The translations under genes and the position numbers were made by a program. Under the pieces are notes generated by a model. It searched no databases and was not told where the DNA came from. It saw only the letters and a list, made by a program, of their open reading frames with translations. Shown here in pieces: positions 52,263 through 55,035 of a stretch of DNA of 64,000 bases. The stretch is from Nitrosopumilus sp. (GTDB lineage Archaea > Thermoproteota > Nitrososphaeria > Nitrososphaerales > Nitrosopumilaceae): the NCBI GenBank assembly GCA_965219345.1, contig OZ244732.1, positions 1,664,001 through 1,728,000 on the forward strand, read 5' to 3'. Position 1 is the stretch's first letter, and each line of letters opens with the position of its first letter.

Positions 52263-52570
52263 ATTAGACTTTATGCGTAATCGCACTTGCAAATTTTTTT
52301 TTTTTTTGTGGCGCAGGCCGTGCCAAGCCTGTCTGTACCCGTTGCCCACAGGCCATCCTCAAGTTCCAGCCGCTCGCGGAGAGAGCTGACTGCCTTGCTG
52401 TGCTTGCTGACTTCCCTGTCCTTCTGCCTGATCGTCTTGGCATTCTCTTTGAGCTCCCTTTGCAGCCTTCGTATGGTCTGTTCGGGGGACTCCATTGCAT
52501 GTGGCGGCGATCAAGGCGGATCTAAATCTTTCGAAAAATTTGCAAGTGGCGATTACGCATAAAGTCTAAT
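52263..52570 (-). mobile_element. MITE / internally deleted IS with ~36-bp terminal inverted repeats
   Basis: ATTAGACTTTATGCGTAATCGC-ACTTGCAAATTTTT (52263-52298) versus its reverse complement at 52534-52570 (one indel); GC-rich interior; coiled-coil ORF 52271-52495. Confidence 0.85.
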
Positions 52571-52738
52571 ATTGTAATCTGCTTTTGAATTGAAAAGCGG
52601 GTCAAGATAGATTAGGTCAACTGATTCATCACTAATTTGTTCCCTTAGAATCTTTAGATTGTCACCAAAGAAAAGTAAATTTTTTGCGAACCTCCCCCCC
52701 CCCCCCGCGTTCCCGATTGGGTTAGATGTGGAGATCAT
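52571..52738 (-). pseudogene. 5' stump of an N6/N4 DNA methyltransferase truncated by the MITE
   Basis: NLLFFGDNLKILRE.I.DESVDLIYLDPLFNS..DYNI (motif IV DPPF variant); G13 tract near the start. Confidence 0.8.
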
Positions 52739-52739
52739 C

Positions 52740-52910
52740 TTAGGCAGATCCTATAATTTCTATTTTTTTACCTTTTATTACAAATTCAATGTGATCAGGA
52801 TTATGTAACACTTCTAAAACTTTTGGTGGGATTCTACAAAGTTTACTAAACTTGCTAGTAGTACTTACGGCCACTCTGAAATTTGTCTCATCTTTTTTCC
52901 AACGTGTCAT
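52740..52910 (-). CDS. Small AbrB/MazE-like DNA-binding protein
   Basis: MTRWKKDETNFRVAV...CRIPPKVLEVLHNPDHIEFVIKGKKIEI swapped-hairpin pattern. Confidence 0.65.
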   Translation of the reverse strand: MTRWKKDETNFRVAVSTTSKFSKLCRIPPKVLEVLHNPDHIEFVIKGKKIEIIGSA

Positions 52911-52964
52911 AATGTATTCCAAAACCTTGACTATATTAAGAGTACGTTTACTAGTAATTATTAA

Positions 52965-52980
52965 ATAAGAGTACTCTTAT
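52965..52980. promoter_or_regulatory. Perfect 16-bp palindrome in the divergent promoter region (imperfect copy at ~52937)
   Basis: ATAAGAGTACTCTTAT; TAAGAGTACGTTTA upstream. Confidence 0.55.
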
Positions 52981-53001
52981 CTAAATAACAATGAAGCGAG
53001 T

Positions 53002-53076
53002 AAAAATGAGGGCAATAATGAGCCAACTCTCGTCTGATCAAATGATGATCACGGCATGATCTGAGCCCTCATTTTT
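53002..53076 (+). ncRNA. Archaeal box C/D guide sRNA-like element
   Basis: 12-bp terminal stem; box C ATAATGA 53015-21 (one mismatch), 12-nt guide, D' CTGA 53034-37, C' ATGATGA 53042-48, 12-nt guide, D CTGA 53061-64. Confidence 0.7.
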
Positions 53077-53118
53077 TGATTCTCATTATTCTATTTTAAT
53101 TTTCAAGAGGTCTTACGC

Positions 53119-54266
53119 ATGAACGCAAGACAGCAAAGAGGAAAACAAATAGTTAAAAGACAAGATCAGATTATCAGAATAGATGAGAATCATTACAGGG
53201 TCAATTCACAAAGTAGAGGAAATATCCAGCATGATGTTGTCTCTACCGAGTTTGGATGGTCTTGTTCCTGCGAGGATCGTCTATTTAGAAAGACCTGCTG
53301 CAAGCACATTCATGCAGTAGAGATTTCATTATCAATTAGAAAAGAAGTAGAGAAAATAATCACGGTAGGACAAATTCAAACCGATTGCTGCATACACTGC
53401 AAATCATCTAAAATTAGAAAAAGAGGAATCAGAAAGAACAAGACACATTCGATTCAGTTGTATCAGTGTGGTGATTGTAAAAAATACTTTTCATTTAATC
53501 TTGGCTTTGAAAAGATGCACGCCTCGCCTCAAATAATTGCCAGTGCAATGCAGCTATACTTTACAGGTGAATCCTTAAGATGGGTCCAGAAGTTCCTGAA
53601 ACTTTAGGGTGTCAACATAAGCCATGTTTCTATCTACAAATGGATTAAGAAATACATCAAACTCATGGATGATTATCTAAACACCATAACCCCCCCCCCC
53701 AAGTAGGTGAAAAATGGCACGCAGACGAAGTATGGCTAAAGGTAAAGGGTGCAGAAAATACCTTTTTGCCATGATGGACAACGACACCAGATTTTGGATT
53801 GCCCAAGAGGTCGCAGATTCAAAGTTCAAGCATGATGCTAGAAGCCTGCTAAAGATGGGAAAAACGGTAGCCAAGAAGGTTCCTTCTGTCTTTGTAACTG
53901 ACGGTTTACCAGCTTATAATGATGCCTTCGAGAAGGAATTTGCACCAAAGAACTTTCCTGCACAAGTCAAGCAGGCACGTAAAAGAAGTTCATTTTAGAA
54001 ATCAAGTAGCAAATAACAATATCCAGGAGAGATTGAATGGCGAGTTCAGGGACAGGGAAAAAGTCTTTAGGGGCCTGAAAAAGGATGATAGTCCAGCAAT
54101 TACAGGAATCAAACTGTATCATAACTACACAAGGCCACACATGAGCCTAGACGGTAACACTCCTGCCGATAGAGCTGGAATTGAGATTAAAGGCGATAAC
54201 AAATGGAAGACAATAATCCAAAATGCAAGCCTAACGAAACCAAAGCGTTTAATTTCTACCTTGTAG
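53119..54266 (+). mobile_element. Disrupted IS6-like DDE transposase with N-terminal SWIM finger and zinc ribbon
   Basis: SWIM CSCED....CKHIHAV; CIHC...YQCGDC; WHADE, YLFAMMD..TRFWIA, VTDGL.AY, NN.QERLNG, HNYTRPH; TAG at 53605 and frameshifts at C11 (53690-53700), ~53750 and ~53955. Confidence 0.85.
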
Positions 54267-54374
54267 AAATAACAATGAAAGCCTTTTGACGTTTCCGTCT
54301 TCGTCCATGATTGCCGAATCATGATATAGACGACCCCTGATCAGACGTTACAGTCAGGGGCATTTTTTCTTCAT

Positions 54375-54455
54375 GCCATGATAGTCTAGTGGTAAGACGC
54401 CAGTCTCCTAAACTGGTCATGTAACGTGACGGGGGTTTGATTCCCTCTCATGGCG
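54375..54455 (+). tRNA. tRNA-like gene with CCU (Arg) anticodon and long variable arm
   Basis: Acceptor GCCATGA/TCATGGC plus G73; D arm GTCT-AGTGGTA-AGAC; anticodon arm CCAGT-CTCCTAA-ACTGG; variable arm TCATG-TAA-CGTGA; T arm GGGGG-TTTGATT-CCCTC. Confidence 0.8.
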
Positions 54456-54530
54456 TTTCAGGCGACGGAAGTTAACACGGAGAAGAAAGCTACGATAAGC
54501 TAACAGAATCGAATTAAATAAATAAATACT

Positions 54531-54554
54531 ATGGGTACCCATGGGTACCTATGG
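54531..54554. promoter_or_regulatory. Tandem palindromic operator-like repeats at the antitoxin start
   Basis: ATGGGTACCC-ATGGGTACCT-ATGG; ATGGGTACCCAT is a perfect palindrome. Confidence 0.6.
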
Positions 54555-54784
54555 TAGAAAGTTCAATGTCAGTATCACAGGAATCAAAATTGAAATGGGC
54601 AGCTTTCAAGAATCATCCAAAAGAATCCATGGAGGCTTTGATTAATCGAACTTTCAATTTAGCTTACGTAAATGAAGAACCACTTGATGCAAGAGATATA
54701 TCTGACATTCAGAGATCACTTGCAGATTTTAAAAACGGTAACTTCAAGACTAACGCCCAACTTCTCAAAGAACTAGAAGCTTGA
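54551..54784 (+). CDS. Putative antitoxin (RHH-like N-terminus)
   Basis: K.HPKESME.LI.R and EPL....I.DI.RSL.DFK.G.F.T..QL.KEL; overlaps the toxin start. Confidence 0.7.
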   Translation: MVESSMSVSQESKLKWAAFKNHPKESMEALINRTFNLAYVNEEPLDARDISDIQRSLADFKNGNFKTNAQLLKELEA

Positions 54785-55035
54785 GTTGGATTGCACAGTG
54801 GTCTAACACTGCCAATAAACAACTAAAGAAATTACCAAAAAAAGATCGAAAGAGAATTTTATTAAAGACAGCAGATGTTGAAGAAAATCCTTTTTTGCAT
54901 CTTTCAAAACTATCAGGAGAGCCATTTTTTCGTTTCAGAGTAGGAGATTATAGAATTTTTTGTGATGTAAATAATAAGGAACTGCTAATCATGATTGTCA
55001 AAGTCAAAGGCCGTGGCGGCGCCTACAAGAGATAA
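54781..55035 (+). CDS. RelE/ParE-family toxin
   Basis: A.KQLKKL...RKRI, KL.G..FFRFRVGDYRI, V..R..AY motifs. Confidence 0.9.
   Translation: MSWIAQWSNTANKQLKKLPKKDRKRILLKTADVEENPFLHLSKLSGEPFFRFRVGDYRIFCDVNNKELLIMIVKVKGRGGAYKR

Follow-up and report, generated by a model that had tools for sequence, protein, structure and literature searches.

Archaeal box C/D sRNAs, such as those of the families snoPyro_CD (RF00095) and Sulfolobus sR14 (RF01145), contain C, D', C' and D boxes with two 12-nt guides, have about 60 nt between the strands of their stem, and are complementary to rRNA with the target lying opposite the fifth guide position. All of these traits recur in the family described here, one member of which lies in a 64,000-nucleotide stretch of Nitrosopumilus sp. 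DNA (contig OZ244732.1; the whole stretch is called the window, and positions are counted from its first letter). The family is unlike the known sRNAs in its long (8–12 bp) conserved stem, in occurring in multiple copies with unrelated guides, and in its location inside a DDE transposon; the window copy differs further in its AUAAUGA box C and in scoring below every gathering threshold.

According to the passages on these elements in Lui et al. 2018 (PMC6009581), the MITE-like sRNA elements of Pyrobaculum calidifontis are multi-copy C/D-like units in which conserved inverted repeats flank boxes C and D. Their guides are loosely related and mostly orphan or directed to non-conserved targets, and a spread of sRNA genes was proposed; the same passages describe the elements as non-coding, far from genes and with degenerate D' and C' boxes. 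This element is the closest precedent and the only earlier hint. The units reported here have good internal boxes instead and lie either inside autonomous IS6 transposons with 45–50-bp repeats of their own or in tandem arrays; they are not short, self-dispersed non-coding units bounded by their own inverted repeats, as the Pyrobaculum type is. Mammalian snoRNA retroposons (Weber 2006, as cited in PMC7994747 and PMC6009581) are also guide-RNA genes that spread as mobile DNA and whose guides then diverge, but, as those citing papers report it, theirs is RNA-mediated retroposition in eukaryotes, whereas here the gene is the cargo of a DNA transposon.

The IS6/IS26 review (Varani et al. 2021, PMC7986276) gives repeats of 15–20 bp and a single cargo-carrying tIS member with one hypothetical gene. 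The elements studied here share with IS6/IS26 the DDE_Tnp_IS240 transposase, repeat tips GG..CTGT and 8-bp duplications, but differ in their longer repeats, in a SWIM/zinc-ribbon extension, and in carrying methyltransferase-like genes plus a small RNA gene. Structured RNAs with variable guide segments are found beside the transposase in IS110 (bridge RNA) and IS605 (omega RNA), where they guide the machinery to DNA. In contrast to these, the guides here match rRNA or tRNA and not element ends or targets. A 2019 survey (PMC6563490) reports, in the part concerned, that passenger-carrying transposons were undetected in archaea, thaumarchaea included. Our search of main texts found nothing on C/D sRNA genes inside archaeal transposons and nothing on Thaumarchaeota C/D sRNAs or hammerhead-C/D arrays.

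The C/D unit of the window and its immediate flanks consist of the following features.

52966-52979, plus strand: palindrome TAAGAGTACTCTTA, between a divergent small ORF and the C/D unit
52980-52989, plus strand: A/T-rich TATA-like stretch, lying with the palindrome about 15–25 nt before the stem
52990-53001, plus strand: 5' flank motif AATGAAGCGAGT, read by eye
53002-53013, plus strand: 5' strand of the 12-bp terminal stem, AAAAATGAGGGC, 100% complementary to GCCCTCATTTTT
53015-53021, plus strand: box C ATAATGA, after a 1-nt spacer; third position A where the consensus RUGAUGA has G
53022-53033, plus strand: D' guide GCCAACTCTCGT (12 nt), an orphan for which no target was found
53034-53037, plus strand: box D' CTGA, followed by the 4-nt spacer TCAA; invariant in the three-copy alignment
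53042-53048, plus strand: box C' ATGATGA, invariant in the three-copy alignment
53049-53060, plus strand: D guide TCACGGCATGAT (12 nt), complementary to positions 1001-1012 of the genome's own 16S rRNA
53061-53064, plus strand: box D CTGA, an invariant box
53065-53076 (the entry runs to 53077), plus strand: 3' stem strand GCCCTCATTTTT, ending in T6 at 53072-53077
53089-53118, plus strand: conserved transposase leader TTCTATTTTAATTTTCAAGAGG plus 8 nt, with a TATA-like box and the SD-like motif AAGAGG

A sequence-only reading of this DNA had described the 12-bp stem, the four boxes, the two exact 12-nt guides, a G-to-A change in box C and an end 42 nt upstream of the transposase ATG (at 53119), and all of this was confirmed. 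It had also proposed that AATAATGAG in box C can pair alternatively with CTCATTATT (53082-53090); this pairing does exist in the sequence, but it is missing in the two paralogues described below and is unused in the minimum free energy fold. The T6 run may be an archaeal oligo-T terminator. From its position before the stem, the segment 52966-52989 is presumed to be the promoter/operator of the sRNA; it is 89.6% identical at locus L061 of a related genome (G384). Words resembling ATGAA(T)nnAAG were seen by eye before the stem in the paralogues c212 and c1035 and at the loci L051, L052, L053, L057 and L061.

An Rfam scan of 52500-54700 at E<=10 returned 21 matches, 14 of which were C/D-box families on this unit, with sR14 (E 8e-5) and snoPyro_CD (30.8 bits, E 6e-4) at the top; no Rfam gathering score was reached by the window unit (30.8 against 45 bits for snoPyro_CD). 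The fold of the unit had z = -2.8, and 2 of 200 shuffles were equally good. In its predicted K-turn a G-A pair is replaced by A-A; the stem is perfect and covaries in the family. Genes for fibrillarin, Nop5 and L7Ae are encoded in the genome, all above the Pfam cut-offs. Judged by this architecture, 53002-53076 is an archaeal box C/D methylation-guide RNA gene with predicted expression.

BLAST within the same genome gave two paralogues, C1:212619-212702 on the minus strand (c212) and C1:1035434-1035517 on the plus strand (c1035). When the three copies were aligned, stem and boxes were invariant apart from one stem pair changed from C-G to G-C, and the guides were unrelated; the variation of guides on fixed boxes that the sequence-only reading had asked about was thus seen between copies. 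A covariance model built on these three copies, which it scores at 93–99 bits, gave matches at E<=1e-4 in 5 of 100 further genomes from the genus, and related units were also found with it in three genomes of other genera (G016, G080 and G041). At E<=0.01 a match was present in 50 of 151 genomes (a tally that takes in the unpublished G077 and G092), mostly at two conserved, unrelated C/D genes that stand alone. In the alignment of 19 units, 88.2% of the stem cells pair and 6 of the 12 pairs change on both sides; the covariation score was reached by none of 500 shuffles and by no slid control, in an alignment that was itself fitted to the covariance model. A strict pattern of the scaffold, run over the species-genome collection, hit only five stretches in four records, all titled Nitrosopumilus sp. 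or Nitrosopumilaceae; within what was searched, the scaffold family appears to be limited to Nitrosopumilaceae. The generic Pyrococcus C/D model retrieved only 15 loci in the own genome at E<=10, of which the top four were one stand-alone gene and the three units, and one relative, in G080, passed the snoPyro_CD gathering score (45.7 against 45). C/D units of this scaffold occur in the own genome only beside transposase leaders; elsewhere the scaffold is also found in tandem arrays with no transposase within reach, and in loci of the G016 type hammerhead motifs separate the arrayed units.

The leader motif upstream of the window transposase was searched through the genome and gave 12 matches, 10 of them leaders of IS6-family transposases. 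All 10 are preceded, 40–55 nt before the ATG, by a small RNA gene or a remnant of one. This slot holds a C/D unit, complete or degenerate, in seven copies and a tRNA in three, as follows.

window, c212 and c1035: C/D unit of this scaffold
c330 and c747: C/D unit built on a second scaffold, the spacer of which is a stem-loop (by eye)
c1636: degenerate unit
c1264: remnant
three further copies: tRNA, Leu-CAG twice and Ile-GAU once

Inverted repeats of 45–50 bp, which start GGTTCTGT and have the tips GG..CTGT, are clear in six paralogous elements. They lie 0.5–3 kb upstream of the ATG and about 40–500 nt past the stop codon; a search within 600 nt upstream of the ATG found none, the true ends being further upstream. 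Target duplications are absent in three of the six elements with repeats (c747, c1220 and c330), and the other three are these.

c1035 element, C1:1033406-1036785: 45/45-bp inverted repeats and a 7-bp TAATGAT duplication, with the C/D unit inside at 1035434-1035517
c1730 element: 47-bp repeats and the 8-bp duplication TCATATCA, with tRNA-Leu(CAG) in the slot
c1009 element: 8-bp target duplication

In elements with intact ends the small RNA lies within the repeats and duplications, and it is therefore cargo of the transposon and not its neighbour. The tRNA-Leu(CAG) genes carried by transposons are near-identical in sequence, and the chromosomal tRNA-Leu(CAG) does not resemble them. Further cargo, assigned from motifs, comprises methyltransferase-like ORFs (from an SPPY motif seen by eye), nuclease-like ORFs and a divergent small ORF. 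The transposase of the intact paralogue c212 matches DDE_Tnp_IS240 (PF13610) at E 2.3e-14 and has a SWIM domain in addition. Genome-wide, TATA-like motifs peak at -32 to -27 and SD-like motifs at -15 to -10, and the leader spacer carries both: its TATA-like box stands at the distance typical of leaderless genes, and its SD-like motif matches the 3' end of 16S rRNA.

Two other genomes (G374 and G291) have the same order of C/D unit, leader and transposase, and two copies in G384 have lost the middle of the transposase but retain its first codons and 3' end together with the leader and the C/D unit. Of 60 further genomes in the genus, 30 have the transposase family itself. Upstream regions were inspected at 25 loci: at only two of these, L071 and (by eye) L082, a small RNA stands before this leader, and the others have palindromes directly upstream; ARAGORN found no tRNA upstream of the 25 transposase genes of other genomes, and L082 has, by eye, a tRNA-like 3' half. 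As the slot is present in few of these 25 regions, it marks a sub-lineage of the transposase family.

In the window the element around the C/D unit is broken, and the parts still recognizable are listed below.

52740-52922, minus strand: divergent 60-aa ORF in the position of the AbrB/MazE-like ORF of c1035; no Pfam match
53119-54266, plus strand: pseudogene of an IS6-family transposase (SWIM zinc finger and DDE) in three ORF pieces; the SWIM match is weak
54374-54456, plus strand: tRNA-Arg(CCU) with a long variable region (ARAGORN; Rfam tRNA 62.3 bits, 11-nt insert)
54461-54511, plus strand: remnant of the right inverted repeat, ending ...CTAACAGAATC, by eye a homologue of the c212 element's left repeat

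The transposase gene is interrupted by an in-frame TAG at 53605-53607 and by at least two frameshifts, placed by eye near 53749 and 53955; over residues 1-192 it is 73% identical to that of c212, and homology matching recovers it as two pieces with internal stops. The tRNA-Arg(CCU) sits between the transposase and the right repeat; the remnant of this repeat aligns with a score of 30, just above shuffles (21–28). No left inverted repeat was found in 30000-53100 and no IS6-type repeat pair around the window copy; as the element has no definable pair of ends, no target-site duplication could be assigned to it. Pfam gave no match for the window ORFs 52740-52922, 52553-52738 and 54551-54784. The small ORF of c1035 matched MazE_antitoxin at 23.3 bits, below the cut-off of 24.7, and the ORF at 52740-52922 is tentatively taken as its AbrB/MazE-like counterpart.

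Guide targets were sought for 33 distinct guides from the 19 units against the rRNAs and 46 tRNAs of the own genome, using the longest contiguous pairing through position 5 and 40 shuffles per guide. Nine of the 33 pair at levels that at most 2 of 40 shuffles reach, where about two would be expected by chance; the other 24 have no convincing target among the RNAs of this one genome (G000), which stood in for those of each carrier genome. The guide GTTCCATTCATT, which G384 and G080 share and c212 carries with a single change, forms 11 bp with LSU 2062-2073; CAGCCTGTTAT[A/T] pairs with LSU 2540, ATCTGGCGTTGT with SSU 905, and one family guide with the anticodon region of tRNA-Ala(UGC). By a simple match score on rRNA and the 46 tRNAs, none of 12 guides tested stood out.

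The window D guide is also among the nine. Its complementarity to 16S rRNA, proposed by the sequence-only reading with one G-U, was found on the genome's own 16S at 1001-1012 (CTCGTGCCGTGA): guide positions 2-12 form 10 Watson-Crick pairs and one G-U, a duplex matched by 0 of 40 shuffles but significant only by the contiguous-duplex measure, as a looser match score was equalled by 13% of 500 shuffles. Counting back from box D, the fifth guide nucleotide faces U1005 (own numbering). The proposed approximation of the D' guide to a 23S segment did not hold up: no rRNA site, in the LSU or elsewhere, lies within 3 mismatches, and the best contiguous pairing of 7 bp was equalled by 39 of 40 shuffles. 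In 400 other genomes of the family (Nitrosopumilaceae) the D guide sequence was found in none, and the D' guide matched in 15, always with 3 mismatches, where controls gave 11 matches. A match of the D guide to 10 of 11 nt at the junction of the downstream tRNA (54371-54381) had also been pointed out; it exists, with 2 mismatches in 12, but is at chance level, since with at most one mismatch the guide has 2 genomic sites besides its own locus against 0–11 for 20 shuffles. This candidate was rejected, matches in the flanks and in the whole genome being at chance level only.

The C/D family looks functional, with methylation predicted. The units of G374 and G291 are identical at 61 of 63 positions and at 24 of 24 guide positions, in an aligned region, transposase included, that is 69.7% identical; both shared guides have no clear target, and their identity could reflect recent conversion rather than selection. 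Over 52696-53022 the window and locus L061 agree at 89.6%, and the similarity ends precisely where box C meets the guide; past box C, L061 bears the LSU guide and resembles c212. New specificities seem to arise by a swap of the guide-bearing middle at the conserved boxes.

Taken together, we favour, at a rough probability of 0.55, the reading that the window holds a guide RNA gene of a transposon-borne Nitrosopumilaceae family and that this copy is a decaying relic. In IS6-family cargo transposons of this genus the C/D unit would have a fixed place between a divergent regulator-like small ORF and the transposase, directly before the latter, and would be copied each time the transposon moves. 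Its RNA would assemble with L7Ae, Nop5 and fibrillarin, and the particle would direct 2'-O-methylation of the nucleotide facing the fifth guide residue counted back from box D or D', which for the window D guide would be 16S U1005. The sequence-only reading had suggested a mobile rRNA-methylation guide; this is supported for the family, the units of which lie inside IS6-family transposons bounded by repeats and duplications, with several guides that beat shuffles and a 16S match in the window, but the activity of the window copy is doubtful, given the loss from box C of a G that is invariant elsewhere and the relic state of the element.

Whether the window copy has decayed or is still active turns on box C. 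Its third position is A in the window and G in all 18 other distinct units. In K-turns, L7Ae binding depends on two sheared G-A pairs, and this G would take part in one of them. The surrounding element is decayed, and an active copy is further disfavoured by the G-U that adjoins the target nucleotide in the 16S duplex and by the failure to find the guide in the 400 relatives. Most likely this copy is a relic in decay, its activity presumably impaired or lost. Against decay stand the perfect 12-bp stem, the intact D, D' and C' boxes and the good 16S match, which a long-dead gene would not be expected to keep and which count against the relic reading. In an alternative with the same origin, the window copy would still be active: aided by its long stem and undamaged C' and D' boxes, the AUAAUGA box C would bind the core proteins, and the RNA would guide methylation of U1005. 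This would accommodate the features just named together with the exact 12-nt guide spacing, the 11-bp duplex with the own 16S and the presence of the RNP genes. It would also fit the stability of the sequence, 53002-53090 having no variant letter in the contigs of four DNA runs, which come from one study, possibly the assembly's own source, and so are not independent. In view of the changed G, we consider an active window copy a serious possibility but an unlikely one.

A role in cis, also raised by the sequence-only reading as an L7Ae-bound control element, would make the K-turn a structured part of the 5' region of the transposase transcript that binds L7Ae or terminates transcription and keeps expression low, the guides being irrelevant. 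The fixed position before the ATG in 10 of 10 leaders and the stem followed by T6 agree with it, read-through transcripts would accord with the SD-like motif of the spacer, and archaeal L7Ae-mediated translational control is, by its stated topic, the subject of PMC5539422. We nevertheless hold it to be improbable: a tRNA fills the slot in 3 of 10 copies, so that a K-turn is not required, guides are kept at 24 of 24 positions where the transposase is only about 70% identical and several match rRNA, the scaffold occurs in arrays with no transposase in reach, and the window transposase is a pseudogene. An insertion preference of the IS for sites just downstream of pre-existing small RNA genes, which would make the RNA no cargo at all, could account for tRNAs and C/D genes both occurring upstream and for the elements without target duplications, but is very improbable and largely refuted by the repeats 0.5–3 kb upstream of the transposase that enclose the small RNA, by the duplications flanking the whole unit in c1035 and c1730, and by the near-identical transposon-borne tRNA-Leu(CAG) copies. 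That the unit is a terminator-like hairpin or repeat with box-like words in its loop by chance is suggested by its imperfect box C and its sub-threshold Rfam scores; a set of four boxes, spaced by exactly 12 nt and conserved in 19 units whose guides vary, the relative that passes the snoPyro_CD threshold, and the guide-rRNA matches make this extremely unlikely. Variable guides on a constant scaffold beside a transposase, and the 10/11 complement near the tRNA junction, recall a bridge-RNA-like guide specifying the donor end or target DNA. However, the own ends and flanks (-1500 to +3000 scanned) give only 2-mismatch, chance-level matches, the family guides match rRNA instead, and DDE IS6 enzymes are not known to use RNA, which leaves this hardly credible.

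Beyond the transposon-borne guide gene favoured above, a wider reading may be put forward tentatively, although we rate it as doubtful: Nitrosopumilus IS6 transposons would keep a small-RNA slot and spread through it programmable methylation guides and atypical tRNAs that act on the host ribosome and tRNAs, with new specificities made by guide-cassette swap at the boxes. If this were true, the transposon would rewire translation rather than merely carry protein genes. A benefit of these methylations to the carrier, such as protection of its rRNA or tRNA from cutting by ribonuclease toxins, is pure speculation. The findings bear on the means by which guide RNA genes of the C/D type increase in number, change place and gain targets in archaea. 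The family forms a natural set of paralogues with a fixed scaffold and differing guides, and an autonomous DDE transposon with defined ends is a concrete and testable vehicle for the spread of guide genes in abundant marine ammonia oxidisers.

Away from the window, two transposase genes of genome G384 (loci L051 and L057) carry an internal deletion that spares the opening codons and the 3' end with its repeat-like tail; the leader and the C/D unit are kept as well. The guides differ between these two copies, and the pattern is as would be expected of non-autonomous derivatives. In two other genomes, G374 (L052) and G291 (L053), the guides GTCTCTGGCGAT and CAGCAAAGCTAT are identical and the adjoining transposase region is about 70% identical; neither guide had a recognisable rRNA or tRNA target.

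Two features flank the transposon relic in the window:

Window 52263-52570, inverted repeat pair of 37 nt around 234 nt
Window 54551-55035, ParE-family toxin gene (Pfam E 6e-10) preceded by a small ORF, just beyond the right-repeat remnant

The right end of the former has matches of 96-97% identity at C1:54936, C1:1366074 and C1:1841378 of the same genome, and the whole resembles a small non-autonomous repeat element that has inserted beside the relic. The latter is probably a toxin-antitoxin pair. The homopolymer C runs at window 52694 and 53690, the second within the broken transposase, varied in length by 1-2 bases among contigs from four DNA runs, which may be true variation or assembly noise.

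Members of a set of long-variable-region tRNAs lie at window 54374-54456 and at C1:1235416, 1220105, 1730533, 951658, 969887, 903933 and 1038939, and several of them adjoin IS6-type transposase genes or fragments. The anticodons in this set include Arg-CCU (twice), Leu-CAG (twice), Ile-GAU and Ile-UAU, which are unusual for such tRNAs, and both transposon-borne Leu-CAG tRNAs differ from the chromosomal Leu-CAG tRNA.

The genome also holds stand-alone C/D genes, the guides of which are kept across many genera of the family:

C1:447055-447108, minus strand, stand-alone C/D sRNA gene (no convincing rRNA target for its guides by simple scoring)
C1:41075-41131, minus strand, stand-alone C/D sRNA gene

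Units of the window-type scaffold were further found in tandem, repeating at intervals of roughly 150 and 235 nt:

G080:C2:117735-119175 (locus L012), tandem array of C/D units
L096, 4005-4304 (a named Nitrosopumilus MAG record), tandem array of C/D units

No transposase was detected by tblastn within the 3-kb locus L012 or the 8-kb locus L096. Several of the arrayed units bear the guides predicted to pair with LSU 2540 and SSU 905, and the spacer between units is similar, by eye, to the transposase leader of the window.

In a further tandem array, L011 (G016:C31), C/D units of this scaffold alternate with matches to the type I hammerhead ribozyme on the minus strand, at 1053-1101 and 1427-1475, scoring 35.4 and 33.8 bits respectively; the 35.4-bit match exceeds the gathering score of 34. 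Hammerhead-like words are present in L054 (G419) too. In the literature searched, a single paper mentioned hammerhead ribozymes, box sRNAs and archaea, each of them 1-3 times and outside its title and abstract. The alternation in L011 suggests that the guide RNAs of this array would be freed from a long precursor by self-cleavage.
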